From an uncultured Planctomycetales bacterium (GTDB lineage: Bacteria > Omnitrophota > Gorgyraeia > Zapsychrales > Fredricksoniimonadaceae), in contig CAZFNI010000001.1 in NCBI GenBank assembly GCA_964520655.1, positions 3,067 through 67,066 on the forward strand: a stretch of 64,000 nucleotides of DNA, written 5' to 3'. Position numbers and translations under genes: made by a program. The notes below the pieces were generated by a model that had not been told where the DNA came from, made no database searches, and saw only the letters and a program-made list of their open reading frames with translations. Positions within the stretch are counted from its first letter, which is position 1, and each line of letters opens with the position of its first letter. Positions 1 to 40,640 of the stretch are shown piece after piece.

Positions 1-1
1 T

Positions 2-3000
2 GGACCAACGGTGAGTTCCGGGGGTAGTCAGTCAATGATCGATTTCGGGAACAATGCGGCAGCGACTACCGGTACAGCGGATTTCTTTTTGATCAACCCC
101 TCCTCAAATAATTCCGCTGGGATCTTTAAGATCGCGAAAAGCAGCTTTGCTTATTTTGAGATCGATACGAATGGGAAGGTCGGTATAGGAACGGTAAGTC
201 AGGGGAGTTTATTGTCTGTTCTAGGCGGGGCGAGTTTAGGGGTTTACGCGAGAAGCGCTGCGCCGGCTGGAGGTCTCATTGCTTCAGGTAATGTTGGTGT
301 TGGGACAATTGGCCCGGCAAGCAAGATGGCTGTTGTTGGGAATATTGGTGTTGGGACAGGGATCAATTCGAGTTATGTGACAACCGCTGCGCCAAGCGGA
401 GGGATGATCATTGAGGGTAATGTCGGATTAGGGACAACGACGCCTCAGGATAAATTGATCGTCCTTGGCGGCAATGTCGGTATCGGCACATGGACAGCGG
501 ACAATGCGTCGTTGGAAACGACCGGCCTGCGTTTGATCGGCAACGGCGCGGCGGCGGGCAGCGTGCTTGTGTCATCCTCGACAGGTATCGGGACGTGGAT
601 GGCGCCGGGGACGATATCATCGTCAGCCGCATCAGGATGGTCGACAGGGACGGGAACGGTTTATAATACGACAGGCTCAGATAATGTCGGCGTTGGCACG
701 ACAACGCCGCAGGGCGGGTTTGTGGTGACCAACGGCAATGTGGGTATCGGCACCTGGGCGCCGCAGTCGCTGCTTGATGTGTACGGCGCGGGGGATGCAT
801 ATTTTACCACCAATGTCGGGATCGGCAGCGTCAATCCGACACAGGCGCTCGATGTGGTCGGGACGGGTAAATTTTCTGTTGCGGTTAACGCGCCGGCGAT
901 CTCCAATCTAACCTCCAATGGTTTTGTCAAGACCTCCGGCGGAACAGGGACGCTGTCCGTTGATACGAACACCTATCCCAGCTATTCATCCATGACAACC
1001 AATTATTTGCAAAAAGCAACGTCGTCCTCGGCGGTAGGGAATTCTTCCATATTTGATAACGGCAATGTGGGGATCGGGACAACGACGCCGCAGGGTGGTT
1101 TGGTCGTGACCAATGGCAATGTGGGGATCGGGACGTGGGCGACTGTTGGAGGCCGATTTATTGTTAAAGGCCCTGGAAATGTTGGAATTGGGACATCAAT
1201 GCCAGAATCACTATTAACTGTAAATGGGACCTCTGGTATTATTTCTGATTTGACGACCAATGCATCTCAAACATCTTTTTTTAAAGGCAATTATAATGGT
1301 TCTAATTATTTTAATATTTTATTTGGAGGTTCCAACGAAATCCAATTTTCCATAACAGATACTGTGGATAATACAAATGGCAATTATTTCATACAGAAAT
1401 CTGGAGAGACATTTGGTAGGGCTGTTTTTGGCAGATCATTTTTAGCCTTTGGTCCAGGAAATACAACAAGAGATGCTTTTATTGAACGATCATCTTCCAG
1501 TACATTTCGTATATCATCAGATCAGTCCACAGGAGCTGCTAATTTATTAGTTACTGGAAATTTAGGTCTGGGTACTTTAACGCCTTCAAGTAAACTCACT
1601 GTTGCGGGTGGCTTGGGTATTGGGACAGGTTTAAACACGCAGTATGTGACAACTTCAGCTCCAACTGGCGGCATGATCGTTGAGGGTAATGTGGGGTTTG
1701 GGACAACCACGCCGAAGGCGAAATTGGCTGTTGTAGGTGGCAATGTGGGCATTGGTACCTGGACAGCCGATACGGCCTCTTTGGAGACCACCGGCCTGCG
1801 GTTGATCGGCAATGGCGCGGCGGCGGGGAGTGTGCTTGTGTCAACGTCGACCGGTGTTGGAACCTGGATGGCGCCGGGGACAATTTCTTCCTCAGGTGCG
1901 GCGTCTGGTTGGTCAACGGGAACGGGAACCGTCTATAACACGACGGGGTCGGATAATATCGGTATCGGGACCACAACACCGCAAGGCGGGTTGGTGGTGA
2001 CCAACGGGAATGTGGGGATCGGGACTTGGACAGCGAATTCTTTACTGCAGGTTGGTCCACAAATTACAACTACAGCGCTTGCCGGATTTACAGCGATCGC
2101 TAATATTGCGGGTAATGTCGATGCGATCAGTGGCATCGAAATGAGAAATCTGAGCTCAGGTGTCTCAGCAGATTACAGGTTTTTAGTCAGCGATAATGCG
2201 CATGATGCCTATTTAGCTTTTTCAATGCCCTCAACGGCAAATACCGGAACGTTATTTGGCATGACAAGGAGCGGTGTTGCCGGGGTATTTACGAATGCAA
2301 CGACTACGGGAAGGATTCTTGTGTTAGGGACTGTAACCCAAAATTCAACGGTGTTGGGTACGAACAATACCGAAAGGATGCGGATAAGTTCTTTGGGGAA
2401 TGTCGGTATTGGGACAACAACACCGCAGGGCGGATTTGTTGTGACCAATGGTAATGTGGGGATCGGTACTTGGGCACCCGTTTTAAATCTTGATATTACA
2501 GGACAATTTGGTGTAAAACCTTCATCTTCAGGTTTTCCTACATCAATAGCCCAAGGCTTAGGCGGAAGATTTTATGCTGTACATCCAAGCAATGACTGGG
2601 GTTTTGTTGTAGCAAGAGCTTCAAATGATAATGGGAATGGAAATCTTACTTTGTATCACACTAGAAATTCGGACGCCTCTGTAAATACGGCGCTTTCAAA
2701 TGGAGATGGTTTGGGGCGCATTAGTTTTCAAGGGGCTACTGGTTCAAGCACTGTGATCAATGGTGCTGAGATCCAAGCTATTGTCAACGGCACAGTGAGC
2801 GCCGGTGTTTTACCGACCGATTTAATTATTCGTACGGGTAATGCGGATGTTAGCAACAGCAGTACTTATGAAAGGATGCGCATAACTTCTGCGGGTAATA
2901 TCGGCATCGGCACAGCCTCGCCCCAAGCAAAGCTTTCGATTGTTGGTGGGAATGTCGGTATCGGGACGTGGACGGCGGCGACGGCTTCTTTGGAAACAAC

Positions 3001-6000
3001 CGGCCTGCGTTTGATCGGCAACGGCGCGGCGGCGGGCAGTGTTTTAGTTTCTACTTCAACAGGTATTGGAACCTGGATGGCGCCGGGGACAATTTCTTCC
3101 TCTGGTGCGGCGTCCGGTTGGTCGACGGGTACGGGAACGGTTTATAACACGACGGGATCTGATAATGTGGGTATTGGAACAATAACGCCTCAAGGTGGGT
3201 TGGTTGTGACCAATGGCAATGTAGGTATTGGTACATGGACGACAGCTGGAGGGAATTTGATCGTAATGGGAAATATCGGCATAGGAACGAGTATTCTGAC
3301 GGGGTATCAACTTGATATCTTTGACAGGCACAACGCAGGTAATGGTTCGGCGATAGTCATGAACCTTGCTTCTTCTGGCGCTTCTTCAGGTTCTGGATAC
3401 GGGGGTATCGATATCAATAATACTTTAGGTGATAATGCTTTTATGAATCGTTTTGGTGTTCGCGCTTCGGCTTATCAGTATGGGCTTATCGGAAAGTCTT
3501 TAGGTAATAATGGATCAACCATGGGTTCTGCTGCGGGATGGTTCACTATCCCGCCTGCGGCAGTTCTTGGTGAATCGACGGGAACAACGACTGGTTCAGC
3601 CATTGTAGGGGCGTCGGACCAGATCACAACATCGGATTTGATGCAATTATTGCAAGGGGGTTCCTCTTTTACGGGAAATGGTTTAACGATGAGTTTTGGC
3701 AATCAAGGTTCCGGCGGATCTTTTAGTGGGAATTTCCTTAATTTAAAAGTTAACACAGTCAATAAATTTGTGATCAATAGCTCAGGCAATATTGGTATTG
3801 GCACATTGACACCGGTCAATGCTATTGATGTTGTGGGAGGCGTGGGCATTGGGACAGGGATCAATACGGCCTTTTTAACGTCTTCTGCGCCAGCCGGCGG
3901 GATGATTGTTCAGGGTAATGTGGGACTAGGGACGACGACGCCGCAAGATAAATTGATCGTTGTTGGCGGTAATGTTGGCATCGGCACCTGGACGGCTGCG
4001 ACGGCTTCTTTGGAAACGACCGGTCTGCGATTGATCGGCAACGGCGCGACGGCGGGCAGCGTGCTTGTGTCATCCTCGACAGGTATCGGGACCTGGATGG
4101 CGGCATCGACGTTGGCGACATCAGGAGCAGCTTCTGGTTGGTCGACGGGGACGGGGACTGTTTATAACACGACAGGGTCGGACAAGGTCGGTATCGGGAC
4201 GACAACGCCGCAGGGGGGATTTGTCGTCACCAATGGCAATGTGGGCATCGGCACCTGGGCACCGCAGGCATTGCTTGATGTTTACGGCACAAGCGACACC
4301 TATTTTACGACCAATGTCGGTATCGGCAGCGTGAACCCGACACAATCTTTGGATGTTGTGGGGACAGGTAAATTCTCGACAGGGGTGAACGCGCCTAAGC
4401 TGACGAATCTGACCAGTAATGGTTTTGTCAAAACAGGTTCCGGCGACGGGACGCTCTCCGTTGATACGAACACATATCCCAGCTATTCGTCCATGACAAC
4501 CAATTATCTGCAAAAATCAACGTCGTCCTCTGCGGTGGGGGATTCGTCCATTTTTGATAACGGTAATGTCGGGATCGGCACGACGACGCCTCAAGCGAGT
4601 TTTGTTGTGTATGGGGGCGGCAAAGTTGGGATTGGCACATTTGCGCCCTATTCTTTGATCCAAACCCAAATTCAAAGCGCTGGATCGGTAACGACGTTGG
4701 GTGTTAAGAATTTGACTAACGGGACTGGTATTGCTGAATTTGGGGGAACCAGTACCGGGGATGTTTCGGGTATTCGATTTTACAATGCGGATTCAACGGC
4801 ATTTAATTCCATTAGTCTTGGGTTTAGACATGGGCAAACCATTGGTCAGGCAGGTGCTCCTCAAGGATGGTTCAAGGCCTATTTACCAAGCGGAACAACG
4901 AGTACGGAATTTGGCTTTTTGACGTCGGCAGCCGGGTATGAGGCCCTGCGCATCAAGGCTTCGGGTAATGTGGGGATAGGGACCATTGAGCCTGGGTCGC
5001 TGCTGTCGGTCGCAGGAGGGGTGGGGATAGGGACAGGACCTAATACGGCGTATGTTTCAACAGCAGCGCCGGCAGGAGGGATGATCATTCAGGGCAATGT
5101 CGGGATCGGCACGACGACACCTCAAGCAGGTTTTGTTGTGTATGGGGACGGCAATGTGGGCATCGGGACATGGACGGCGGCAACAGCTTCATTGGAAACA
5201 ACCGGATTACGTTTGATCGGCAATAATGCGGCGGCGGGAAGTGTTCTTGTTTCGTCGTCAACGGGTATTGGGACGTGGATGGCGGCGGGGACGTTGGCAA
5301 CATCTGGAGCTGCATCTGGCTGGTCCACGGGTACGGGAACTGTTTACAATACGACAGGAAGTGACAAAATTGGTATCGGCACGACTACTCCTCAGGGTGG
5401 TTTAGTTGTGACGAACGGAAATGTCGGCATTGGCACATGGACTGCAGCGGCGGCTTCTTTGGAAACAACCGGCCTGCGCTTGATCGGCAACAATGCCGCA
5501 GCAGGAAGTGTCTTGGTATCGTCCTCGACAGGTATCGGGACCTGGATGGCGGCGTCCACCCTGGCAACGGGGGCTGCGGCTTCAGGTTGGTCGACGGGGA
5601 CGGGGACGGTTTATAACACGACAGGGTCGGACAAGGTCGGTATCGGGACGACAACACCGCAAGGCGGTCTTGTGATCACCAACGGTAATGTGGGTATCGG
5701 CACCTTTGCCCCGACCCAATTGCTTGATATCAATGGGAATATCGCTGCCAGCGGCACGGGCGATAGCTATTTCCTGGGGAGTGTTGGTATCGGTTCGTCT
5801 TCGCCAGCGACGGCGCTGGATGTGACGGGAACGGTTCGTTCAACTGCGATCTCAGCCGGTTCCGGCGGATTTACCGTTGATAGTAGCGGCAATGTGACGG
5901 CGGTGGCCAGTACCACGACGACGGGCGGGTATACGCAAAGCGGGACCAGCGCCAATACATTTACCGGCACATCGACATTTAGCAATGCCACAAAATCAGC

Positions 6001-6415
6001 GATCTTTACCGGCGGCAATGTCGGTGTCGGCACCACAACGCCGCAGGGGGCATTTGTGGTGACTAACGGCAATGTTGGCATCGGCACCTGGGCGCCTAAC
6101 TCTACCTTCACATTCAGAGGTTCCCAATCGGCTTCATTAGGGACATTGGCTGCGGATACTACTCTTGGAACTTCTCAATATACTGTCCTGGTCGATTCTA
6201 CCTCATCAGCCATCACGATCACGCTGCCGACGGCGGTGGGGATCACGGGCCGGTGCTACCGCATTAAAGATTGGAAGGGGCAGTCGGCGGTCAATAATAT
6301 CAACATCGCGACGACTTCAGCGCAAACGATCGACGGGGCAGCATCGGCGATCATTAATGTGGCGTATCAGGGGGCGGAATTCTGTTCAGATGGAGCGAAT
6401 TGGTCCATATTCTAA
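2..6415 (+). CDS. Giant secreted/surface fibre-like repeat protein (>=2134 aa; reading frame open to window start, so probably 5'-truncated). At least six copies of a ~100-aa module plus a unique ~100-aa C-terminal domain
   Basis: Single 6.4-kb ORF. Translated protein is Gly/Thr/Asn/Val-rich with the reiterated motif GNVGIGTTTPQGGLVVTNGNVGIGTW and the module ..ASLETTGLRLIGNGAAAGSVLVSSSTGIGTWMA..SGWSTGTGTVYNTTGSD.. at nt ~470-760, 1740-2035, 2940-3240, 3965-4265, 5150-5400 and 5400-5700. The motif resembles repeats in proteins annotated as tail-fibre-domain proteins (family resemblance only). No stop codon in frame between nt 2 and the GTG at 11. Confidence 0.8.
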   Translation, partial: GPTVSSGGSQSMIDFGNNAAATTGTADFFLINPSSNNSAGIFKIAKSSFAYFEIDTNGKVGIGTVSQGSLLSVLGGASLGVYARSAAPAGGLIASGNVGVGTIGPASKMAVVGNIGVGTGINSSYVTTAAPSGGMIIEGNVGLGTTTPQDKLIVLGGNVGIGTWTADNASLETTGLRLIGNGAAAGSVLVSSSTGIGTWMAPGTISSSAASGWSTGTGTVYNTTGSDNVGVGTTTPQGGFVVTNGNVGIGTWAPQSLLDVYGAGDAYFTTNVGIGSVNPTQALDVVGTGKFSVAVNAPAISNLTSNGFVKTSGGTGTLSVDTNTYPSYSSMTTNYLQKATSSSAVGNSSIFDNGNVGIGTTTPQGGLVVTNGNVGIGTWATVGGRFIVKGPGNVGIGTSMPESLLTVNGTSGIISDLTTNASQTSFFKGNYNGSNYFNILFGGSNEIQFSITDTVDNTNGNYFIQKSGETFGRAVFGRSFLAFGPGNTTRDAFIERSSSSTFRISSDQSTGAANLLVTGNLGLGTLTPSSKLTVAGGLGIGTGLNTQYVTTSAPTGGMIVEGNVGFGTTTPKAKLAVVGGNVGIGTWTADTASLETTGLRLIGNGAAAGSVLVSTSTGVGTWMAPGTISSSGAASGWSTGTGTVYNTTGSDNIGIGTTTPQGGLVVTNGNVGIGTWTANSLLQVGPQITTTALAGFTAIANIAGNVDAISGIEMRNLSSGVSADYRFLVSDNAHDAYLAFSMPSTANTGTLFGMTRSGVAGVFTNATTTGRILVLGTVTQNSTVLGTNNTERMRISSLGNVGIGTTTPQGGFVVTNGNVGIGTWAPVLNLDITGQFGVKPSSSGFPTSIAQGLGGRFYAVHPSNDWGFVVARASNDNGNGNLTLYHTRNSDASVNTALSNGDGLGRISFQGATGSSTVINGAEIQAIVNGTVSAGVLPTDLIIRTGNADVSNSSTYERMRITSAGNIGIGTASPQAKLSIVGGNVGIGTWTAATASLETTGLRLIGNGAAAGSVLVSTSTGIGTWMAPGTISSSGAASGWSTGTGTVYNTTGSDNVGIGTITPQGGLVVTNGNVGIGTWTTAGGNLIVMGNIGIGTSILTGYQLDIFDRHNAGNGSAIVMNLASSGASSGSGYGGIDINNTLGDNAFMNRFGVRASAYQYGLIGKSLGNNGSTMGSAAGWFTIPPAAVLGESTGTTTGSAIVGASDQITTSDLMQLLQGGSSFTGNGLTMSFGNQGSGGSFSGNFLNLKVNTVNKFVINSSGNIGIGTLTPVNAIDVVGGVGIGTGINTAFLTSSAPAGGMIVQGNVGLGTTTPQDKLIVVGGNVGIGTWTAATASLETTGLRLIGNGATAGSVLVSSSTGIGTWMAASTLATSGAASGWSTGTGTVYNTTGSDKVGIGTTTPQGGFVVTNGNVGIGTWAPQALLDVYGTSDTYFTTNVGIGSVNPTQSLDVVGTGKFSTGVNAPKLTNLTSNGFVKTGSGDGTLSVDTNTYPSYSSMTTNYLQKSTSSSAVGDSSIFDNGNVGIGTTTPQASFVVYGGGKVGIGTFAPYSLIQTQIQSAGSVTTLGVKNLTNGTGIAEFGGTSTGDVSGIRFYNADSTAFNSISLGFRHGQTIGQAGAPQGWFKAYLPSGTTSTEFGFLTSAAGYEALRIKASGNVGIGTIEPGSLLSVAGGVGIGTGPNTAYVSTAAPAGGMIIQGNVGIGTTTPQAGFVVYGDGNVGIGTWTAATASLETTGLRLIGNNAAAGSVLVSSSTGIGTWMAAGTLATSGAASGWSTGTGTVYNTTGSDKIGIGTTTPQGGLVVTNGNVGIGTWTAAAASLETTGLRLIGNNAAAGSVLVSSSTGIGTWMAASTLATGAAASGWSTGTGTVYNTTGSDKVGIGTTTPQGGLVITNGNVGIGTFAPTQLLDINGNIAASGTGDSYFLGSVGIGSSSPATALDVTGTVRSTAISAGSGGFTVDSSGNVTAVASTTTTGGYTQSGTSANTFTGTSTFSNATKSAIFTGGNVGVGTTTPQGAFVVTNGNVGIGTWAPNSTFTFRGSQSASLGTLAADTTLGTSQYTVLVDSTSSAITITLPTAVGITGRCYRIKDWKGQSAVNNINIATTSAQTIDGAASAIINVAYQGAEFCSDGANWSIF

Positions 6416-6430
6416 TTAAAAGGAAATAGT

Positions 6431-8749
6431 ATGATGCGATTATGGGAAAATATTACACGGCAGCTGAGAACTGGCAGGAAGATCCTGGTCTTAGCAGCTG
6501 TTTTCATGGTGCTGATCACAGCGATACCGTGTTTTGCGTATTATTTGCCGCTTAATTCCAGCTCCAGCGGGAATATCGGTGTCGGGACAGCCAGCCCTCA
6601 AACAAGATTTTCCATTGTCGGCGGGAATGTGGGGATAGGCACCTGGACAGCGGCGAATGCGTCTTTGGAAACCACTGGCATTAGGTTGATCGGCAACGGC
6701 GCGGCGGCGGGCAGCGTACTTGTCTCATCCTCAACGGGGATCGGGACCTGGATGGCGGCGTCAACCTTGGCGACGTCGGGCAGTACACCGTCAGGTTGGT
6801 CGACAGGGACGGCGACGGTCTATAACACAACGGGATCGGACAATGTGGGTATAGGGACAACAACGCCTCAGGGCGGGTTGGTTGTGACCAACGGGAATGT
6901 GGGTGTCGGCACATGGACAACCATTGGCGGCAGGTTGATTGTGAGTGGTCCCGGTAATGTTGGGATCAATACAGCCTGGCCTGGCGCTAAATTCGAGGTT
7001 GTTGGCCCGGGGACTACGACCAATATGGCCCGGTTTATCAATAGTCAGGGAAGCATGACGTTTTATCTGGCACCGACTATTCCCGCGTCCGGTGTTTGGA
7101 CGACAAGTGGAGGGGCCTTTTATGAGACACAAATAGGGGTTTCATCCGATACGGATCTTTGGTTAGTACAAAACAATACAGCCAAGATCAAGATGCCTTA
7201 CACTGATTCTGTGCAAATAACGGACAGCACAGGTCTTTATGTCCAGAAAAATGTTGGGATAGGGACAACAACATACCAGGCGGCATTGGCGGTCATGGGT
7301 AATGTCGGCATTGGTACCTGGGCGCCTATTACATCTTTAGATACCAAAGGTTTTCGCTTGGCAACAGGGCCGTCGGCTGGATATGTGCTTGTGTCAGGAT
7401 CAACGGGGATTGGAACCTGGATGGCGGCGTCGACCCTGGCGACGTCGGGCAGTACACCGTCAGGTTGGTCGACGGGAACGGGTACGGTTTATACAACGAC
7501 AGGGTCGGATAATGTGGGTATAGGGACGATCACTGTTCCTGAAAAGTTAACCATTAGCGGGAATATACAATTTACGGCTGGTGCCTCTCGCACGATCAAC
7601 GTCGCCACAAATCCGGGAGGTTCAGGGAATGATCTGACAGTATCGGCAGGAAATCCCAGTGCTGCATCGGATAATTACGGAGGGAACCTGTATTTAAAAG
7701 GGGGTGATAGTGATGGTGGCGGGGCTATGGATGCGGGTAATGTTTATATTTCCGGCGGTTCTGATGCATTATCCAGTTTACAGGGTGATGTGATCTTAGG
7801 GAACAACGGGTCAACAACGTTAGGCAATGTCGGTATCGGCACCTGGGCTCCCACGGCTGCTTTGCAGGTGAATTCGACCAATGCCTCGCCATTTATCGTG
7901 GATGCTAACGGCAATGTCGGTATTGGTACAACACGCACATCTTCGGCCCGTTTTGTGGTGATGGGGCAGAATGTCGGTCTTGGGACATGGCTGCCGGCTA
8001 CTCCCGTACACCTTAAGACAACATATTATCCGACGCTGGCCACATTTGAGAGCGGATGTTCCGGCTGCAATACGAATATTGAAGTCCAGAATATTTATAA
8101 GGGTAATAATGATTCGACCAGTGTGAAATTTAAATTCTATGGCGGCGGAGCTGCGTATATTGGCGGCGTAAGTCCAAGCAGTTTGGCTGCAGAGCTGAGT
8201 TTTTCGGTTATGGACGCCTCCGGTGCAACGGTTACGGCAGCAAGGATCGATAAGAATGGGAATTTGGGTGTCGGCACAACAACGCCGCAGGCGAAGTTGG
8301 TTGTTCTTGACGGCAATGTCGGCATTGGGACATGGACGGCCGGTGGCGGCAAATTGATCGTTATGGGCAGCGGGAATGTTGGGATATCAACGGCATGGCC
8401 TGGGACCGCACTTGATGTCAACGGAACCATTCGTTCTGTTGGAACAGGAAACTCATACTTTGCGGGTAATGTTGGTGTTGGAACATCGGCAGCGCCTAAT
8501 ACTTTAGCGGTACAAGGAACACTTGCCGTTGGCAGCGCAGCATTTGCAGGCGCAACATTACCAGCAAATTCATTGGTGGTCTCGGGTAATATAGGAGTCG
8601 GTTCGACTGCGCCTGGTACCCCATTAGATGTCAACGGCCGGGCGCGGCTTGTTGGGATAGGAACAACTGTCCCTTGTGCTTTGTGTATGAAGGCGGACGG
8701 CACACTTGGTTATTACAACACAACAACTTTTCAAGGTATATGCAATTGA
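6431..8749 (+). CDS. Paralogous fibre-like repeat protein (772 aa) with N-terminal signal/anchor helix (ILVLAAVFMVLITAIPCFA) and two copies of the same module
   Basis: ORF 16 bp downstream of the previous gene, preceded by AAAGGAAA RBS. Contains TAANASLETTGIRLIGNGAAAGSVLVSSSTGIGTWMAAS..SGWSTGT..VYNTTGSDNVGIGTTTPQGGLVVTNGNVGVGTW (nt ~6610-6910) and a degenerate second copy (~7300-7530). Confidence 0.8.
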   Translation: MMRLWENITRQLRTGRKILVLAAVFMVLITAIPCFAYYLPLNSSSSGNIGVGTASPQTRFSIVGGNVGIGTWTAANASLETTGIRLIGNGAAAGSVLVSSSTGIGTWMAASTLATSGSTPSGWSTGTATVYNTTGSDNVGIGTTTPQGGLVVTNGNVGVGTWTTIGGRLIVSGPGNVGINTAWPGAKFEVVGPGTTTNMARFINSQGSMTFYLAPTIPASGVWTTSGGAFYETQIGVSSDTDLWLVQNNTAKIKMPYTDSVQITDSTGLYVQKNVGIGTTTYQAALAVMGNVGIGTWAPITSLDTKGFRLATGPSAGYVLVSGSTGIGTWMAASTLATSGSTPSGWSTGTGTVYTTTGSDNVGIGTITVPEKLTISGNIQFTAGASRTINVATNPGGSGNDLTVSAGNPSAASDNYGGNLYLKGGDSDGGGAMDAGNVYISGGSDALSSLQGDVILGNNGSTTLGNVGIGTWAPTAALQVNSTNASPFIVDANGNVGIGTTRTSSARFVVMGQNVGLGTWLPATPVHLKTTYYPTLATFESGCSGCNTNIEVQNIYKGNNDSTSVKFKFYGGGAAYIGGVSPSSLAAELSFSVMDASGATVTAARIDKNGNLGVGTTTPQAKLVVLDGNVGIGTWTAGGGKLIVMGSGNVGISTAWPGTALDVNGTIRSVGTGNSYFAGNVGVGTSAAPNTLAVQGTLAVGSAAFAGATLPANSLVVSGNIGVGSTAPGTPLDVNGRARLVGIGTTVPCALCMKADGTLGYYNTTTFQGICN

Positions 8750-9714
8750 TTTATTTATTGTTCATTTCTTTGTTAATGACATCAATCTGTTATGCGGAGC
8801 AGATTATTCTAACATCGGGGGCTACATGGACAGTTCCAGCAAACTGGAACAATAGTATGAATACAATTGAATGTATTGGCGCGGGTGGTAACGGAGCGGA
8901 TGGTCTGGTGAATGGTATCGGAGGCGGTGGCGGCGGTGGTGGAGAGTATCGGCGGATCAGGAATTTCTCAACGACAGCTGGTAGTTCCATATCGTATTCA
9001 ATCGCATCCGGGGGATCAGGTAGTGACACGACATTCAATACGAATTCCTTGATCTGTAAAGCAGGAGCTAATGCTTCAGGCGGAACAGGTGGGGCAGGGG
9101 GATTAGGTGGTACAGGGAGCGATCTAAATGCGAATGGCGGAGACGGGGGAACAACGCCTGGACGTTCAGGTGTGGGAGGTGGGGGAGCAGGTGGTTTTTA
9201 TGGTCCAGGAAATACTTCAACACCTGATGTAAGCGCGACGGGTGGGGGCGGAGCTAATTCAGGAACGGGAAGTGTTGGAACAGGAGGAACGACAGGCGCA
9301 GATGGGGGGTATGGATATGGGGGCACAGGGAATGGGATAGGCAGCGGTAAGGCTACCGTTCCAGGAACAGCAGGAACATTTGGCGGAGGTGGAGGCGGTG
9401 GGAAAGGATATCTGGCAACGGCGTTAAATTGTACAAATGGAGGTAATGGCGGGGCTGGGAAAGAATATGGATTGGGTGTAGGTTCAGGTGGCGGCGGAGG
9501 TGGCGGGGGTGGTTCGACAGGCACAGGCAATGGTGGTAATGGTGGTAATGGAGGCAACTACGGAGGTGGCGGCGGTGGCGGTGGCGGTGTTGCCACCGGC
9601 GCAACGAATGGAACAAAAGGAACGGGAGCACAAGGTGTTATCATTATTACATACTCTCCTATTGGCAATAATTTAAATAATGCGAGTATCGCCAATGCTC
9701 AGGTCAGTTTCTGA
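8740..9714 (+). CDS. Secreted glycine-rich domain protein (signal peptide MQLIYLLFISLLMTSICYA; N-terminal 'SGATWTVPANW...IGAGGNGADG...GGGGGGGGEY' motif followed by long poly-Gly/Thr/Asn tracts)
   Basis: In-frame ATG at 8740 gives a canonical signal peptide and overlaps the stop of the preceding gene by 10 bp (the ORF track's 8674 start is upstream read-through). The motif GxWT(V)PA....(I/V)xxxGGGG is characteristic of the bacterial/viral glycine-rich-domain family. Confidence 0.7.
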   Translation: MQLIYLLFISLLMTSICYAEQIILTSGATWTVPANWNNSMNTIECIGAGGNGADGLVNGIGGGGGGGGEYRRIRNFSTTAGSSISYSIASGGSGSDTTFNTNSLICKAGANASGGTGGAGGLGGTGSDLNANGGDGGTTPGRSGVGGGGAGGFYGPGNTSTPDVSATGGGGANSGTGSVGTGGTTGADGGYGYGGTGNGIGSGKATVPGTAGTFGGGGGGGKGYLATALNCTNGGNGGAGKEYGLGVGSGGGGGGGGGSTGTGNGGNGGNGGNYGGGGGGGGGVATGATNGTKGTGAQGVIIITYSPIGNNLNNASIANAQVSF

Positions 9715-9897
9715 GCAATGAAGAAATTTTTCTATTGCAAATATATATTTGATTGTTATACTACTGACTCCATTGAACGGCCACGGATAAAAGATGGCAT
9801 GAGGTAAGTCTCTTCCGTGGTTTAATTAACAGTCGCGCCATTACCTGTTTGTTTCTGCAAACCGCCGGCGCCGGCAAAAGTGAAGGAGATGTGTTGT

Positions 9898-10635
9898 ATG
9901 AATAACGAATTGATCAAGAAGTTGTTGGAAGCTGGCGTGCATTTCGGCCACCAAAGCCGCCGTTGGAACCCCAAAATGAAGCGTTTTATTTTCGGTGAAC
10001 GCGGTGGTATCTACATCATCGACCTCGAGAAGACTGAAGAACGTTTGAACACTGCCCGTGATTTTATCCGCGAGATCGCGGCTAAAGGCGGCAAGATCCT
10101 TTTTGTCGGTACAAAAAAACAAGCCCAGGATGTCATTGAAGAAGAAGCCAAGCGCTGCGAAGGCTACTATGTGCGCAACCGCTGGATGGGCGGCTTGCTG
10201 ACCAATCTGGAAACCGTGAAGAAATCCGTTAAGAAGTTGATCGATATTGAAAAGATGGAAACCAATGGGACCATCGGCAGATTGACCAAAAAGGAAGCTT
10301 CCCTATTAATGAAGGAAAAAGAACGTTTATTACGCGATCTTGGCGGTATCCGGGAAATGACAGTTCCTCCCGCGGCCATGATCGTTGTGGATACGAAAAA
10401 AGAAGAGATCGCTGTTGCTGAGGCTACCCGTTTGGGTATCCCGGTCGTTGGTTTGATCGATACCAATTCTGATCCAGACAAGATCAACTATCCTATCCCT
10501 GGCAACGATGACGCGGTCAAATCGATCAAATTCATCACATCGTTATTGGTTGACAGCATTTTAGACGGCCGTCGTGAGCACATCGCGGGTAAAAAAGCCC
10601 AGGTGACAGCTGCGGCACAGGAAGTGACCGTTTAA
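9898..10635 (+). CDS. rpsB: 30S ribosomal protein S2
   Basis: ELIKKLLEAGVHFGHQSRRWNPKM is the S2 signature. ATG at 9898 preceded by AGGAG RBS. Confidence 0.93.
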   Translation: MNNELIKKLLEAGVHFGHQSRRWNPKMKRFIFGERGGIYIIDLEKTEERLNTARDFIREIAAKGGKILFVGTKKQAQDVIEEEAKRCEGYYVRNRWMGGLLTNLETVKKSVKKLIDIEKMETNGTIGRLTKKEASLLMKEKERLLRDLGGIREMTVPPAAMIVVDTKKEEIAVAEATRLGIPVVGLIDTNSDPDKINYPIPGNDDAVKSIKFITSLLVDSILDGRREHIAGKKAQVTAAAQEVTV

Positions 10636-10665
10636 TTTAGGATATAGATAGAGGAGAATTTAGCA

Positions 10666-11127
10666 ATGATGACCATTTCAGCTTCAGATATCAAACGATT
10701 ACGTGAAGAAACATCCTGCGGGGTGATCGACTGCAAAAAAGCATTGGATCAGGCCAAAGGTGATTTTGCCAAAGCTAAAGAATTATTGCGTCAGCGCGGT
10801 TTGGAAATGGCGGCTAAGAAAAGCGACCGCAGCGCGAAAGAAGGCCGTGTCGAAAGCTATATCCATGCCGGTAACAAGATCGCGGTCATTGTGGAAGTCA
10901 ACTGCGAGACCGATTTCGTCGGCCGAAACGATGATTTCATCAAGTTCACGAAAGAATTAGCGATGCATATCGCGGCGATGAATCCGGAGAACGTGGAAAG
11001 CCTGTTGGCCCAGCCGTTCGTCCGCGATGCCAGCAAGACTATCAAGGACATGTTAAACGATTTAGTCGCAAAGATCGGCGAGAACATCATGGTCGGCCGT
11101 TTCGTGCGCTACAAGGTGGGTGAATAA
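10666..11127 (+). CDS. tsf: Elongation factor Ts, unusually short form (153 aa)
   Basis: N-terminal UBA-like motif [16 protein letters not shown] and core [18 protein letters not shown]. Canonical rpsB-tsf-pyrH-frr order. Confidence 0.88.
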
Positions 11128-11857
11128 CTCCGTGCCAAATAGCAAGAAACCTGTCTATAAGAGGATATTGCTTAAATTAAGCGGCGAAGCACTGCTTGGC
11201 CGTTTGGCTCATGGTATCGACGCTGAAATGTGCGCTTCCTTAGCGTCGCAAGTTAAAGAGATCCATGATGCCGGAGTAGAGGTGGCCATCGTTGTCGGCG
11301 GGGGCAATATCTTCCGTGGGCAGGTGGAAAGCACGCGTTTCGGTCTGGACCGCTCTGTGGCCGATTACATGGGGATGTTGGCTACCGTCATGAATGGTCT
11401 GGCGCTGCAGAACGCCCTCGAGCAGATTGGTCTTCCAACGAGGGTTATGACCGCCATCCAGATGCACGCGATCGCCGAGCCGTATATTTTGCGCCGTGCT
11501 ATTCGGCATTTGGAAAAACGCCGCGTCATTATTTTTGTCGCCGGGACCGGTAATCCGTATTTCACCACTGATACCGCGGCGGCGTTACGTGCCACCGAGA
11601 TCAAATGCGACGTGATCATGAAAGCGACAAAGGTCGACGGTGTGTATACAGCTGATCCCAAGAAAGACAGCAGTGCCAAACGTTTTGAGAGTTTGAAGTT
11701 CATTGATGTCCTCAAGAAGAATTTGAAGGTGATGGATGCGACAGCGATCTCCATGTGTATGGATAATTCGATCCCCATCATCGTGTTCGACCTGCTGCAA
11801 AAAGGGAATATCAAACGCGCCGTATACGGCGAAAAAATAGGTACCATAGTCCGTTAA
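11120..11857 (+). CDS. pyrH: UMP kinase
   Basis: [12 protein letters not shown] ... [13 protein letters not shown] motifs. GTG start at 11120 (alternative GTG at 11132). Confidence 0.9.
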
Positions 11858-11872
11858 CCACGGGGGGTGCAT

Positions 11873-12433
11873 ATGACAGCAAAAGACATATTAAAAGACG
11901 TGGATGTAAAGATGAAAAAGGCGATGGAGACCATGCTGCGCGAGTTCTCGGAAGTCCGCACTGGCCGTGCCCAGCCGTCCTTGATCGACGACATGCACAT
12001 TGATTATTACGGGACATCGACCCCGATCAAGCAGTTGGCTCAGGTGTCGTCCCCGGATCCCCGGCAGATCATGATCCAGCCCTGGGATGCGAACGCTCTT
12101 AAAGATATCGAAGCGGCGATCATGAACTCCAAACTGGGGGTTAATCCCAATAATGACGGGAAGGTGATCCGTTTGGTGTTCCCGCCGCTGTCAACAGAAC
12201 GTCGTGAAGAGTTCATCAAGGTCTGTAAAGATATGGCCGAACGCGGTCGCGTAACGATCCGTTCCCTGCGCCGCGATGCCAATGAAAAGGCAAAGAAGAT
12301 GCAGGGCGAGGGGCATGTGAGCGAAGATGAGAAATTCAAGACTGAAGAAGAAGTCCAAAAAATGACGGACCGTTTCATTAAAGAAATTGACGCAACGCTC
12401 GAGAAAAAGAGCAAAGAGCTGCGCGAAGTTTAG
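11873..12433 (+). CDS. frr: Ribosome recycling factor
   Basis: Protein similarity (MTAKDILKDVDVKMKKAMETMLREFSEVRTGRA...). GGGGGG RBS 6 nt upstream of ATG 11873 (ORF track begins at GTG 11867). Confidence 0.9.
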   Translation: MTAKDILKDVDVKMKKAMETMLREFSEVRTGRAQPSLIDDMHIDYYGTSTPIKQLAQVSSPDPRQIMIQPWDANALKDIEAAIMNSKLGVNPNNDGKVIRLVFPPLSTERREEFIKVCKDMAERGRVTIRSLRRDANEKAKKMQGEGHVSEDEKFKTEEEVQKMTDRFIKEIDATLEKKSKELREV

Positions 12434-12449
12434 ATCTTTTAGATTTGTT

Positions 12450-12522
12450 GACCCACTAGCTCACCCGGTAGAGCACCACCCTTTTAAGGTGGGGGTACCG
12501 CGTTCGAGTCGCGGGTGGGTCA
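12450..12522 (+). tRNA. tRNA-Lys (anticodon TTT)
   Basis: Hand-folded cloverleaf: acceptor GACCCAC/GTGGGTC, anticodon stem CCACC/GGTGG with loop CTTTTAA, T-arm CCGCG-TTCGAGT-CGCGG. CCA not encoded. Confidence 0.8.
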
Positions 12523-12538
12523 CTTTTTTCCCTTGCTT

Positions 12539-12620
12539 GGGCGGGTGGCGGAATTGGTAGACGCGCATGCCTTAGGAGCATGTGGGGCGACTCGTGGAGG
12601 TTCAAGTCCTCTCCCGCCCA
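12539..12620 (+). tRNA. tRNA-Leu (anticodon TAG), long variable arm
   Basis: Acceptor GGGCGGG/CCCGCCC, D-loop AATTGGTAGA, anticodon stem CATGC/GCATG with loop CTTAGGA, long variable arm, T-loop TTCAAGT. Confidence 0.75.
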
Positions 12621-12800
12621 TATTAAAGAATTAATATGGATGTTGGAGGGCTTGAAGTGAGCCCGATTATAAACTCCGACGAATAGGAGGAGTTTATGGG
12701 CGAGTGGCTGACCCGAAGTGAAGTTCTGGCGCAGAAGCGGCGGAACGAACGGAGGGCACCAAGTCCTCTCCCGCCCACTATAAAAAGTGTGCGGGAATAG

Positions 12801-33843: not shown

Positions 33844-36800
33844 ATGAGTAAAACTTTACAAAAAGCACTGCGCATATTCATCAGCTTGACCTTTATCTTA
33901 AGCTCGGTATCCTTTTCCAAGGTCCAGGCCGGTGAGATCGTTGTTCCCCTGATGCCCAAACCCGGCACGATCGTCAATTTAAGCCCGATGTATAATCCGG
34001 CCTTTTTAAATGGGTTAGTCATCCATCCGGACAATGCTTTGGAGTTTGATTTCTTGATCCGCAAGGGCGACGGCAATTTGGACATGCCACAAAAGAATCA
34101 GGAGTATACGAAGCTGGTCAAATATTTCTTAGCATCGTTGACCATTCCCGATGAAGACCAGTGGGTTAACTTGTCTCCTTATGAAAACGACCGCATCATC
34201 AAGGACAATTTTGGCAAGACGGAAATGGGGCGTGACCTGTTAAGTCAGGATTATCTTCTTAAACAGATCGCTTCGTCATTAATGTATCCCGAGAGTGGTT
34301 TGGGAAAGAATTTCTGGGACAAGGTTTATGAAAAGGCCTATCAGGAATTCGGCAACACCAATATTCCGGTCAACACTTTCAATAAGGTGTGGATCGTCCC
34401 GGATGAAGCTTCCATTTATGAAAGCGGCAATACCGCCTATGTGGTCAAAAGCCATTTGAAGGTCATGCTGGAAGAAGATTATTTGTCCTTGGAAAAGCAC
34501 TCTGCTGTCAGTGAAAAACCTAATAAAACACACGCTTTATCGTCTAAAGTCATCAAAGAGATCATCTTGCCGCAGATCGAGCGCGAGGTCAATGAAGGCA
34601 AGAATTTTGCCCAATTGCGTCAGATCTTTTCCGGGATGGTGTTGGCCACCTGGTATAAAAAAGCGCTGCGTGAATCTTTGTTGGGAAAGATTTATGCGGA
34701 CAGGGCCAAGGTCGCTGGGGTGAATCAGGACCCAGCCAACAATGAGAAAATTTACCAGCAGTATCTCGCCGCTTTTAAGAAGGGTGTTTACAACTATATT
34801 AAAGAAGACGTGGATCGTTACACCAATCAGATCATCCCCAGAAAGTATTTCTCCGGCGGGTTTGTCAATCAGCTGGATAGGGCCATGGTTGTGACCAAGG
34901 TGAATGAAGGGGCCTTGGCTCAGGCGGTTAAGGTTCAAGGGCCGTCGGATATGGACAGGGCGACGGTTTCTTTAAAAGGTGACCAGGAGCGGATGGACGC
35001 AGCGATGAGAACTTCTTCGGACTTGCCAGGGGTCAATCCGGTGGTTTTAAACAAGCAGCCCGCGATGCCGCCCATGGGATCTTTGAGTTTACGTGAATTA
35101 AGCGCTTATGATCAGATCAGGCTAAATAACAAAGGGATCTTGGATAAGTCCATTACTATTTCTGGTGTTGACGGACAGATGCTTCGCTACACGCTCATGG
35201 GGCAGCGCGCAGAAGTTTATTTCAGGCCTGTAGTCAGTTTTTCTTACCGGCAGCATGAGAACGATCCTGCAAAGAAGGTTTTCTATGCGATCGGTTATGA
35301 ACCGGTTAGCTTGGGGGATCGTAATAATTTTAACCTCCGGGTCTTTTACAGGTCGGAAGATGAGACGTTATGGAGATCGTATACTCCTTCGAATATAAAC
35401 TCTGTCGATGATCTTAGTGTGGGAGAGGTCGTGACTGGCCCACTGCAGCGTGATCTGGGCAGGCTTGAGGATGAGGGGATCGAGAACGGGAATGACCATA
35501 CTGGTTTCCGTCTGGCTGTTAATGATATTTTGGTTAAAAGGCAGAATGATGACAAGCCGATCAATGGTTTTTCAAAACCGGAATTTGTCCCTACCCGTTT
35601 GGAAGATCAGCCGGAGATAAGCAAAGACAATATTGTCGACGCGTATAACAGGGCAGGGGTGCCCTTTCTAGTGCTTTCATCAAGGAATAAACAGTATCGA
35701 TGGACGTTCGCGCAGAGATCAGGATATGTTGATGTGGTGCAAGTGGAAGATCTGAGGGCTGGCATCACGGGGCCCCTGGGTTTGCAGGGGAGGAACATTC
35801 CGTGGACTTTGCCGCCTGTGTCCGAGCAATCGTGGTCGTCGCTAACCCAGCCGAACGCGCTCCCGTTCTTAAAAGATGTCATGGCATTGTTCAATCGAAA
35901 TAATTCTTTTGAGATCAGTAAAGCAGGGGTGACCCCTGTCTCATTTGCCGATATCCTCAAAGCCCCTGTGATGATAGAGCTGCCGTCAGGCGATGTGCTG
36001 CGGTTATCAATGGGTCTGGACGGCCGGCTGATTGTTTCTGATGGGCAAAGTTCTCATGCGGTACGCAGCGGCGAGACCGTTACGTATGGGGCTCGGGCAG
36101 ATCTACATCACGGGTTAACGGTGTTGGAGCGTTTGGGTCCTAGATCGGGTGTTTCACAAGCACACTTTACCTTGACAGTGGGGCAGGATGATCAGGGTCG
36201 AGGGATGAAGGGTTATGTTTGGATCAAAGACGGGGCTTATGCGAAAGACGGTGTGACCACCGAGGAGATCCGTAACTTTGTTGCGGCAGCCAATAAAAAC
36301 CCGGAAGGGGTCACGAATTTCTTTAGATGGATGGCGAATTTAGGTTATTTAGGTGTGGTCGAAGGGAATGTTAGACTTTATAAGCTGTTCAAGGCGCCGG
36401 TGGAAGACCCTGCTTTTGCAAAGACCAGAGTGGCGATGCAAGAAGCTTTGGGGGACGAATTAACAAATGCGCTTCTTGCGACATACTTTCAACGGCCTTC
36501 GACCAATGGGTCGGTGATCAGCATGTACAGCGATGCGGCAATGGCGAGCAGACGCACAGCGATCGCATCTCTGGCCGCATCGATGCTGTTAACCCGTGAT
36601 GCCAGCGGGCAAGCGATCAATCGGTCGAGTTTTCTGGATATTCAAGATTTTATGTTTAATTTTCACGCTCTTACAGATAAAAAACGATTAAGTGATGCCG
36701 ATCGTGAAACATTAACAGCAGGCATGTCTTTTCTGGCCCAGCAGCCTCAGTTTCCTCTGGATGCGACAAAAGCCAAAGTATTTGCAGAACGGTTAAATGC

Positions 36801-39591: not shown

Positions 39592-40640
39592 AGGTTTATT
39601 GTTATAAATTAATGACCGATCGTACCTGCGGGGTCTTAGACAGTCTGGTCAAATGTGTGATGTGGTTATTAAGTCTGCTGTATGGCGGGCTGGCGCTGGC
39701 CAGGCGGAGGCTTTATGCGTCAGGAGTGCTGCGCGCGTACCGAGCTTTAAAACCCGTGATCAGTGTTGGAAATATTACTCTTGGAGGTGCTGGCAAGACA
39801 CCGCTGGTGATCGCCATTGTGGAGGCCTTGCAGCAGCGGCAATTAAGACCGGCCGTATTGATCCGCGGGTACATGCCCCAGGGCGAGCTCTACAGCGATG
39901 AGGCATTGATGTTAAAACAGCGGCTGCCTGGCGTTCCGATCTTGACTGGGGCCGACCGCAGCCGCAGCATTGAAGATTGTTTGAAGCATCACGCGGTGGA
40001 TGTGTTTGTTTGTGATGATGCTTTCGGACATTTGCAGATGGCCAGGGATTTGAATATCGTCGCGGTCAACGCGGCAGACCCTTTTGGCAACGGCCATGTT
40101 GTTCCACGGGGTATCTTGCGCGAACCACTTGGGGCATTGGCTGACGCGGATGTATTCGTCGTGACAAAATCCGACCATCCTGACGGAAAGCTCGATCTGT
40201 TGACCCGAAAACTGAATGCGTTCGCGCCTCGATCGCTGGTGGCCACATCGATCCATAAACCGATCGATTGCGTGGATGTTTTTAGCGGATCACATATTGA
40301 TCTGTCGCATTTTAAAGGGATCTCTGTTGTCGGATTTTGCGGGATAGGAGATACCGGTGCGTTCCGGCATAGTTTGCAGCAAGCCGGATTTCAGGCGGTC
40401 AATGTCTTTGGGTTCATGGATCACCATAGTTATAGTGCCCAAGATATGGTCCAGATGCGCAAATGGGCACAGGAGCATAATGTCGTCAACATCATCACCA
40501 CTCATAAAGACGCGGTCAAGCTGGCGGCGTTTAAGGATATTTGGGATGGTTTTAAAGTTTATTATTTAGCGATAGGTCTGGAAATCACGAATGGCAAGAA
40601 TGTCTTCCTTGAAAGAATCATGTCTGTTGTGCGTCATTAA
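39582..40640 (+). CDS. lpxK: Tetraacyldisaccharide 4'-kinase
   Basis: ISVGNITLGGAGKTPLVIAIVEAL P-loop typical of LpxK. Confidence 0.85.
   Translation: MSLKVYCYKLMTDRTCGVLDSLVKCVMWLLSLLYGGLALARRRLYASGVLRAYRALKPVISVGNITLGGAGKTPLVIAIVEALQQRQLRPAVLIRGYMPQGELYSDEALMLKQRLPGVPILTGADRSRSIEDCLKHHAVDVFVCDDAFGHLQMARDLNIVAVNAADPFGNGHVVPRGILREPLGALADADVFVVTKSDHPDGKLDLLTRKLNAFAPRSLVATSIHKPIDCVDVFSGSHIDLSHFKGISVVGFCGIGDTGAFRHSLQQAGFQAVNVFGFMDHHSYSAQDMVQMRKWAQEHNVVNIITTHKDAVKLAAFKDIWDGFKVYYLAIGLEITNGKNVFLERIMSVVRH

Follow-up and report, generated by a model that had tools for sequence, protein, structure and literature searches.

The window analysed here is a stretch of 64,000 nucleotides (nt) of the forward strand of contig CAZFNI010000001.1 (positions 3,067 to 67,066; assembly GCA_964520655.1, deposited as an uncultured Planctomycetales bacterium), and at its beginning lies a row of genes encoding giant, repetitive, fibre-like proteins (Table 1). 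The first of these, gene 1, is cut by the window edge; its open reading frame (ORF) is listed from nt 11 to 6415 and is readable from nt 2. A preliminary description of this DNA, made from its letters alone, had surmised that gene 1 is larger than the window shows, and the complete gene was indeed found in contig JAYRRC010000019.1 (assembly GCA_041910255.1), which is collinear with window positions 1-12627 at 99.89% identity; there, gene 1 starts 464 nt upstream of the window and encodes 2292 amino acids (aa), including an N-terminal signal peptide. The same contig holds a third paralogue, gene 0, upstream of the window. It encodes at least 1956 aa, is truncated at the contig end, and carries at least four copies, of a variant type, of the repeat module described below. 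What had been taken for a tandem pair is thus a row of at least three tandem paralogues (gene 0, gene 1, and gene 2). Gene 2 is recorded in JAYRRC010000019.1 in a 771-aa form, and an exact-sequence look-up of its 772-aa form found no record.

The genes are packed tightly, in the manner of an operon: the stop codon of gene 1 ends at 6415 and the ATG of gene 2 begins at 6431. Promoter- or terminator-like sites beyond those expected by chance were not found in the gene row. A further gene, ORF3, is probably co-expressed with the fibre genes because its start overlaps the stop of gene 2 by 10 nt. The ORF3 protein begins with MQLIYLLFISLLMTSICYA, continues with a beta-rich N-terminal part of ~70 aa, and consists for about half of its length, by eye, of glycine runs. 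Its N-terminal 100 aa matched the Pfam family PF21722 (Gly_rich_2) with an E-value of 5e-5 and 23.7 bits, just under the cut-off of 24.3.

A Sec-type signal peptide is predicted at the start of every complete paralogue and of most homologues, such peptides being called by eye from the N-terminal sequence. With gene 1 it reads MKNIILRSITLILLSICALTSVAVSAYA, with cleavage predicted before AKD; with gene 2 it reads MMRLWENITRQLRTGRKILVLAAVFMVLITAIPCFA, with cleavage predicted before YY. The N-terminus of gene 2 was also considered as a lipoprotein signal and rejected on inspection, as its AIPC fails as a lipobox. In gene 1 the first GNIGIGT motif stands at residue 49, and in gene 2 at residue 47, so that the fibre motifs begin ~20 and fewer than 10 residues, respectively, past the predicted cleavage sites. 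In members of the family the signal peptide is followed at once by a short conserved peptide, of which there are about four kinds: AKDFNIKN(N/D)TQ.., SY(L/I/M)P(F/L)NT.., AADIQAVLD.., or NFNDT... These conserved peptides could serve as sorting, anchoring, or docking signals.

Table 1. Positions (window numbering) of the fibre genes, their repeats and tips, and adjoining features.
Feature	Position	Strand	Remarks
Gene 1, giant fibre protein	2..6415	+	ORF list and translation; window covers residues 156-2292
Substitution cluster, window vs 99.9%-identical assembly	46..187	+	11 substitutions within 142 nt
Segmental duplication, arm 1	284..1089	+	80% identity to arm 2 over 818 nt
Junction module copy 1, 96 aa	470..757	+	GNVGIGTW..ASLETTGLRLIGNGAAAGSVLVSSSTGIGTWM..S/T/A/G linker..GWSTGTGTVYNTTGSDNVGIGTTTPQGG.VVTNGNVGIGT
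Junction module copy 2	1739..2026	+	Repeat finder
Junction module copy 3	2948..3235	+	Repeat finder
Segmental duplication, arm 2	3782..4590	+	80% identity to arm 1 over 818 nt
Junction module copy 4	3968..4255	+	Repeat finder
Junction module copy 5	5150..5437	+	First unit of sole tandem pair
Junction module copy 6	5417..5704	+	Second unit of tandem pair; dS vs copy 5 = 2.6, saturated
Gene 1 C-terminal tip	6128..6412	+	~95-aa beta-sandwich, T4 gp9/gp10-like (CBA120 TSP4 XD-like); AF2, Foldseek
Ribosome-binding site AAGGAAA	6421..6427	+	Within 15-nt gene 1/gene 2 spacer
Gene 2, paralogous fibre protein, 772 aa	6431..8749	+	N-terminal hydrophobic signal/anchor (KILVLAAVFMVLITAIPCFA)
Junction module copy, gene 2	6623..6910	+	Repeat finder
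Diverged junction module, gene 2	7298..7579	+	Form TSLDTKGFRLATGPSAGYVLVSGSTG resembles type in other genomes
Gene 2 C-terminal Cys-containing mini-domain	8642..8746	+	VGIGTTVPCALCMKADGTLGYYNTTTFQGICN; second tip class, conserved in relatives
ORF3, 324-aa secreted glycine-rich protein	8740..9714	+	ATG 8740 overlaps gene 2 stop by 10 nt

Genes 1 and 2 have in common a repeat module of ~290 nt, found as copies of ~300 nt six times in gene 1 and twice in gene 2. A repeat finder placed its copies at 469, 1738, 2947, 3967, 5149, and 5416 in gene 1 and at 6569/6623 in gene 2, with 61-89% DNA identity to the reference copy; within gene 2, positions 6702-6858 and 7371-7527 are 83% identical. In full-length numbering, the modules of gene 1 occupy residues 312-406, 735-830, 1138-1233, 1478-1573, 1872-1967, and 1961-2056, and the segments between them are 200-300 aa long and mutually 24-45% identical. 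The only true tandem array, as detected by Tandem Repeats Finder, spans 5095-5663 with a period of 267, 2.1 copies, and 75% matches. A short glycine-rich motif recurs as well: gene 1 has 38 matches to G-x-[VIL]-G-[IVLF]-[GNS]-[TS], and the capping-loop-like form VG[IVLF][GNS][TS]xxPxxx[LFIVM] was counted 24 times there, compared with 6 times in gene 2. These results agree with the preliminary description in both the module common to the two genes, where it had been placed, and the ~800-nt segmental duplication (Table 1), and a 53-nt repeat that it had given as an example occurred three times with at most one mismatch compared to none in 100 shuffled sequences. The coordinates and the repeat structure are therewith confirmed as real and far beyond chance. 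Two particulars had to be corrected. The G-N-V-G-I-G-T motif does not recur every 12-14 residues, its spacing having a mode of 18 (17-20), and the DNA of the repeats is not near-identical, given the range of identity of whole copies noted above and a longest exact match of 47 nt.

Homology places both proteins among fibres, and not enzymes as the alternative would have been. Searches against PHROGs returned two families annotated as 'tail fiber protein' for gene 1, phrog_9942 (E 6e-24) and phrog_18345 (E 4e-17), the former also for gene 2 (E 8e-13). Among proteins of known structure, the best sequence match of the whole proteins and of a profile of the module was the Bdellovibrio MAT fibre Bd2133 (PDB 8OND), with an E-value of 0.003 for gene 1 as a single sequence and 3.7e-4 for the module profile; in the shaft of gene 1, query residues 702-830 aligned to residues 37-167 of the 8OND chain. 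Of the other MAT structures, 8OML was the best, non-significant match to the C-terminal 244 aa of gene 1, and 8OL4 and 8OJN ranked after T4 gp10 with a profile of the gene 1 tip. Together with the signal peptides and a C-terminal tip resembling T4 gp9/gp10, these matches support the fibre reading of the preliminary description. Pfam and NCBIfam gave no matches to the two whole proteins, nor did Pfam to nine sub-segments of genes 1 and 2 and to the N-terminus of gene 1 taken from JAYRRC010000019.1; neither database has a model for the fibre family.

Members of the MAT family are defined by a signal peptide, a conserved N-terminal domain of ~130 aa, a meandering trimeric beta-helix shaft with the capping-loop motif V-G-G/N-pi-x-x-P-x-x-x-L, and a C-terminus formed by either an S74 chaperone or a swapped adhesive tip (PMC10769870). 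Genes 1 and 2 have the signal peptide (by inspection), as do their homologues, and the shaft with its capping-loop motif, and they end in alternative tips; Peptidase_S74 (PF13884) was found in 14 listed homologues and in neither gene 1 nor gene 2. In place of the ~130-aa N-terminal domain there are the short conserved peptides, and the domain itself cannot be present because the fibre motifs start as early as residues 49 and 47. The proteins would be MAT-like in their working and are distant relatives of these fibres, and they are not filed as MAT members.

The alignment to Bd2133 also suggests what the module may be. Positions 1-56 of the module profile aligned to residues 208-265 of the Bd2133 chain, where the second beta-helix region ends and a short stalk leads to the tip (PMC10769870). 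Past position 56, the module continues with a Ser/Thr/Ala/Gly stretch and then GWSTGTGTVYNTTGSDNVGIGT, with which the shaft restarts. From this correspondence we infer that the ~95-aa module is a junction composed of a beta-helix end cap, a linker, and a restart of the shaft, in which case gene 1 would consist of about seven fibre segments fused head to tail. With the flanking GNVGIGT motifs removed, the module core matched 985 sequences at E≤1e-3 and 220 at E≤1e-10 among 1.84 billion representative proteins. By this measure the module is a discrete, unannotated domain family; it marks approximately 1000 protein clusters in public data and could define a new domain. Two further proteins, P0122 (3197 aa) and P0128 (1551 aa), have the same genome-specific variant of the module (ASLETTG[LI]RLIGNGAAAGSVLV) as genes 0 to 2, the score of P0122 against the module being as high as those of the copies in gene 1. 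Both are probably additional paralogues, either of this genome or of a sister genome, and neither was placed on a contig by exact look-up.

The two genes end differently. The tip of gene 1 was modelled with AlphaFold2 (AF2) from a 21-sequence alignment at a mean predicted local distance difference test (pLDDT) score of 82.6, with values above 90 over most of residues 31-125. Foldseek matched this model to PDB entries 9f4b, 7rfv/7rej, 1qex, and 5iv5 with a probability of 1.0 and TMq of 0.5-0.62, the matches comprising the Klebsiella phage KP1 baseplate, the N-terminal XD domains of CBA120 TSP4, T4 gp9, T4 gp10, and an Acinetobacter phage depolymerase. The sequence profile of the tip aligned to residues 54-143 of T4 gp10 (E 0.007), and in the viral structure library BFVD its fold matched 230 proteins at E≤1e-3, including tail fibre, minor tail, and Gp9/Gp10 proteins. 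Among 232 homologues, 36 copies of the domain were found in all, and 30 of the proteins end in it. With two proteins of Ferruginibacter (P0185 and P0198, annotated as 'beta strand repeat-containing protein'; Bacteroidota), it occurs three to four times in tandem N-terminally and once C-terminally, and the domain is therefore not restricted to fibre ends. The gp10 and XD domains of T4 and CBA120 stand near the N-terminus, where they dock other fibres, whereas the domain of gene 1 lies at the extreme C-terminus. The mini-domain that ends gene 2 is conserved at the C-termini of P0176, P0064, P0111, and P0013, and the C-terminus of gene 0 is without a tip. As adjacent paralogues end differently, the row has the 'mosaic' pattern of MAT fibres.

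We consider it likely, if far from assured, that the locus is an operon-like row of secreted, phage-tail-fibre-like and MAT-like fibres with mosaic tips, which serve to attach the Omnitrophota cell to others, and that its repeats are ancient and selectively maintained. On this proposal, the row would comprise genes 0, 1, and 2 together with the secreted glycine-rich ORF3 protein, all encoded on the chromosome. The fibres would belong to the phage-tail-fibre-like, presumably trimeric, beta-helical class of which the MAT family is the characterized cellular example. Each protein would begin with a Sec signal peptide, followed by a shaft and then by a C-terminal tip that varies between paralogues. 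The shaft itself would be built of 'GNVGIGTxxPxxxL' capping-loop turns, typically 18 residues apart, broken by variable beta-rich segments of 100-150 aa. In all likelihood the fibres would make the cell adhere to others, whether hosts or prey, and the tips would lend specificity.

How old the repeats are bears on a claim of the preliminary description, that they are a live substrate for RecA and hence for length or antigenic variation. Unequal crossing-over and gene conversion within and between the paralogues would then quickly alter the length or antigenicity of the fibres, in the style of a contingency locus. The layout is suited to such a process: direct repeats of 290-800 nt lie inside one gene and between adjacent genes of the same strand, past duplications are evident in the ~800-nt duplication and the tandem pair, and a few exact matches of 28-47 nt attain the minimal pairing length of RecA. 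The divergence of the copies argues against it. Among the seven good module copies, pairwise identity is 84-96% for protein and 74-83% for DNA, and Nei-Gojobori estimates gave a proportion of synonymous differences (pS) of 0.44-0.73, synonymous divergence (dS) of 0.7-2.8, and nonsynonymous divergence (dN) of 0.03-0.11, with dN/dS at ~0.03-0.13; synonymous sites are thus near saturation, even between the adjacent copies 5 and 6 (dS 2.6). Where a residue is conserved between two copies, the same codon is used in 34-63% of cases (mean 49%), close to the 31-33% expected from codon usage. For the ~800-nt duplication, compared over 269 codons, DNA identity is 79% and protein identity 83%, at a dS of 0.72 and a dN of 0.12. 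Within 12.3 kb, exact DNA matches between copies extend to 47 nt at most, only ten being of at least 28 nt, and so the identical or near-identical repeats of at least 50-100 nt that characterize a contingency locus were not found.

Comparison of assemblies points the same way. Over 12.6 kb, the window and GCA_041910255.1 differ by 13 substitutions and one single-base gap, and no indel or change of repeat copy number in the fibre genes was seen in this one informative pair; the comparison of strains for module copy number that had been proposed with the preliminary description thus gave no difference for a pair of independent assemblies 99.89% identical. When species genomes and metagenomes were scanned for gene 2 peptides, a close relative was not found. 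In the sister genome described below, the repeats are likewise 80-87% identical, and three assemblies of its array (L002-L004) are 100% identical to one another. Two observations would suit the recombination account. Module copies within the genome have a common variant, ASLETTGLRLIGNGAAAGSVLV, and are more alike than copies across genomes, the diverged copy of gene 2 also lacking this variant, which requires a lineage-specific expansion or an old homogenization. Further, 11 of the 13 inter-assembly substitutions (6 synonymous and 5 conservative amino-acid changes) form the cluster listed in Table 1, which resembles a recombination tract; it lies in a non-repeated part of gene 1, however, and a paralogous donor was not found in the window, JAYRRC010000019.1, or the 232 homologues. 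The cluster is either an imported recombination tract or a result of strain mixing near the edge of assembly or window. Rapid variation by recombination is largely refuted for recent time scales, and as an explanation of the repeats we regard it as improbable. The near-saturated dS, the near-chance codon identity, the dS of 0.72 for the youngest event, and the collinear assemblies indicate that the repeats are old internal duplicates held by strong purifying selection on the protein and not the outcome of concerted evolution or of a recent expansion, the youngest duplication being the ~800-nt event at a dS of ~0.7. A 2026 preprint likewise describes the repeats in long Omnitrophota genes as old, with a repeat architecture that lives on in the protein after the tandems have 'dissolved' at the nucleotide level (10.64898/2026.06.07.730766), the same old-repeat pattern as at this locus.

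Given their homology, the genes might instead be structural genes of a prophage or a tailocin (a phage-tail-like particle), their products being tail fibres and not cell-surface proteins. The building blocks are common to phages, as viral contigs hold relatives of the module, the tip, and the giant fibres: in IMG/VR, at least 600 stretches of viral contigs have the GNVG[IL]GT[WI] motif, and such contigs contain relatives of the module at 35-41% identity and of the tip at 31-36% (a fifth locus matching only the shaft motif) and encode tail-fibre-like proteins of 1600-3300 aa that match the same PHROGs. The gp9/gp10-like tip, the ORF3 protein, whose Gly_rich_2 type occurs in phage tail regions, and the end of the contig inside gene 0, which leaves whatever lies farther upstream outside the sequence, would all accord with such an origin. 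A virion protein, on the other hand, has no need of a Sec-type signal peptide and a short conserved N-terminal peptide; the 55 kb downstream hold cellular housekeeping genes only, with no capsid, portal, terminase, sheath, or baseplate gene; the row stands at the same position by rpsB in two assemblies; and related genomes hold several such arrays, alternating with Laminin_G_3 proteins. A phage or tailocin origin accordingly seems improbable. Alternatively, the fibres may form a structural coat, be it a surface-layer (S-layer)-like or sheath-like layer or an extracellular matrix, in place of acting as specific adhesins. Very large, secreted, repetitive proteins in several paralogues would fit a coat, the extreme conservation of the junction module might mirror lattice contacts, and a related Omnitrophota organism has been named for its proposed extracellular coat (PMC10066038). 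That the homology is to distal-tip fibres and not to S-layer families, with no S-layer match in Pfam or NCBIfam, and that the tips vary between adjacent paralogues, as binding modules do, makes a coat an unlikely answer.

Several points nevertheless weigh against the adhesive-fibre proposal. The sequence links to the solved MAT fibres are weak, with E-values between 1e-2 and 1e-4 that derive largely from the short glycine-rich motif, and the ~130-aa N-terminal MAT domain is lacking; an outer-membrane export or anchoring system is not encoded in the window. Both trimerization and surface display are inferred. The AF2 monomer of a 190-aa segment containing the module (pLDDT 56.6) showed one beta-hairpin and no globular fold and was not used for a fold search; such an uninformative model is expected for an obligate oligomer and does not amount to positive evidence. 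The comparison for length polymorphism draws on a single informative pair of closely related assemblies, and the cluster at 46-187 implies that some recombination, or strain mixing in an assembly, touches gene 1. Finally, the gp10-like domains of phages are more often docking modules than receptor binders, and so the idea that the tip confers specificity may be wrong for gene 1. A speculative extension of the proposal, to which we attach little weight, follows from this analogy: the gp10-like tip of gene 1 might capture the N-terminal peptide of a sister fibre, such as that of gene 2, so that the secreted fibres would assemble into branched or end-to-end super-fibres on the surface, with the junction modules as hinges. 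It is prompted by the use of this fold in T4 gp10 and CBA120 TSP4 to dock the N-termini of other trimeric fibres and by the few short, strongly conserved N-terminal peptides that follow the signal peptide in family members. If true, the secreted parts would together give a bacterium a branched complex for receptor binding of the kind that phages build.

The genomic setting of the row is that of a bacterial chromosome. Downstream of the fibre genes come rpsB, a short tsf, pyrH, and frr, and past these a stretch of 50 kb with housekeeping and lipopolysaccharide (LPS)-core genes, among them kdtA, lpxK, genes for a lipid A acyltransferase and heptosyltransferases, topA, recQ, an AddAB-like pair, and ileS. 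The named relatives of the IleS protein are all from Candidatus Omnitrophica/Omnitrophota, at 60-70% identity, and a further relative (P0234, on a 1.34-Mb contig) has an IleS that is 82% identical. Of 13 loci with the module in species genomes, 11 are from Omnitrophota metagenome-assembled genomes, the other two being labelled Planctomycetales and Bacteroidetes. Judged by these genes, the organism is an LPS-bearing member of Omnitrophota. The closest other genome, itself deposited as 'uncultured Planctomycetales' (CAZNDZ010000002.1; locus L002, positions 1-23642), carries at least six fibre genes in a row (709-3322 aa), which alternate with genes for Laminin_G_3 (PF13385) proteins of ~250 aa in place of the glycine-rich ORF3. 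The label of this contig may be wrong because its fibres group with those of Omnitrophota, and there are hints that the Laminin_G_3 neighbours are small lectin-like partner proteins of the fibres.

Some further features of the window were recorded. Elongation factor Ts (10666-11127) has only 153 aa, and its match to the 293-position tsf model spans positions 1-145; the short gene is not a sequencing artefact, as it has equal length in the sister assembly. A tRNA-Leu(TAG) gene at 12538-12621 is adjoined by an insert of ~138 nt (together 12538-12759), which ends in a direct repeat of the 3' end of the tRNA (CAAGTCCTCTCCCGCCCA) and is absent in the sister assembly; it is a strain polymorphism and resembles a scar left by a tRNA-targeted integration. 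Directly upstream of the kdtA-lpxK LPS cluster lies a gene for a 1476-aa protein with an N-terminal signal peptide (33844-38274). It gave no Pfam match, either whole or as three sub-segments, and was rejected as a relative of the fibres because it has none of their motifs. At 40591-44660 are encoded two fusion proteins of the LPS core: one, of 661 aa, combines a lipid A acyltransferase with an Elm1-like domain, and the other, of 695 aa, a GT4 glycosyltransferase with a GT9 heptosyltransferase. Three more GT9 genes come after them.

The Omnitrophota are uncultured nanobacteria that have been proposed to be largely predators or parasites, and how they would recognize and hold their partner cells is poorly understood (PMC10066038). 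Work has so far centred on pili and 'giant' proteins. The present locus suggests that they also possess arrays of secreted phage-tail-fibre-like fibres with swapped tips, of which no description for Omnitrophota was found in the literature searched. As their design equals that of the fibres with which Bdellovibrio recognizes prey, they would be candidate host-range determinants in a second predatory lineage. The locus also carries a more general caution: ~90% identity of repeats at the protein level can overlie DNA that is almost randomized at synonymous sites, so that dS ought to be checked before a repeat protein is taken for a hot spot of recombination.

Among known systems, the alpha C protein of group B Streptococcus and the Vlp-type lipoproteins of mycoplasmas are surface proteins whose internal repeats likewise measure a few hundred nucleotides, and they would exemplify the recombination account of the preliminary description. 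Their variation relies on identical or near-identical DNA repeats, whereas the repeats here are 74-83% identical, with synonymous sites near-random. The YadA-class trimeric autotransporter adhesins are likewise long, repetitive, presumably trimeric, beta-rich surface fibres, and the YadA head repeat (PF05658) occurs in a few distant homologues. Pfam and NCBIfam showed no YadA-type C-terminal anchor or other autotransporter domain in either protein, nor at E≤1 in the last 244 aa of gene 1, and the lack of this beta-barrel anchor led to the rejection of a trimeric autotransporter identity. Phage tail fibres and tailspikes (PHROG 9942/18345; the L-shaped fibre of T5 and the S74 class of the K1F endosialidase) have in common with the present proteins the profile matches, the glycine-rich motif, the tip fold, and giant viral homologues of 1600-3300 aa; they differ in that the genes described here stand beside ribosomal and translation genes, without phage morphogenesis genes nearby, and encode Sec signal peptides. 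The giant proteins of Omnitrophota (Archaeovorins and the dockerin type) are alike in phylum, great length, sparse annotation, and a proposed role between cells; unlike these fibres, they are 10-70 times longer and composed of HEAT, TPR, dockerin, or TSP3 domains together with enzymes (10.1101/2023.11.21.568195; 10.64898/2026.06.07.730766). The words 'fibre' and 'fiber' do not occur in these two papers, and 'tail' refers there to a phage head-tail connector.

The closest likeness is to the MAT fibres of Bdellovibrio (Bd2133, Bd1334, and Bd3182; 8OND, 8OML, 8OL4, and 8OJN), the sole solved structures detected here by the shaft and module sequences. Both are cellular, signal-peptide-bearing fibres of ~1000 aa and more, have the shaft motif VGI[GN]TxxPxxxL in common, and occur as many paralogues with swapped C-terminal tips, some ending in Peptidase_S74; Bdellovibrio is a predator, and the Omnitrophota bacterium is putatively one. 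The differences are what is new in the present fibres. They come from a different phylum and are without the N-terminal domain; gene 1 is more than twice as long as MAT fibres, with about seven segments that appear to be joined by a conserved 95-aa junction module undescribed in the account of the MAT family, and its gp9/gp10-like tip is not among the six solved MAT tips (PMC10769870).

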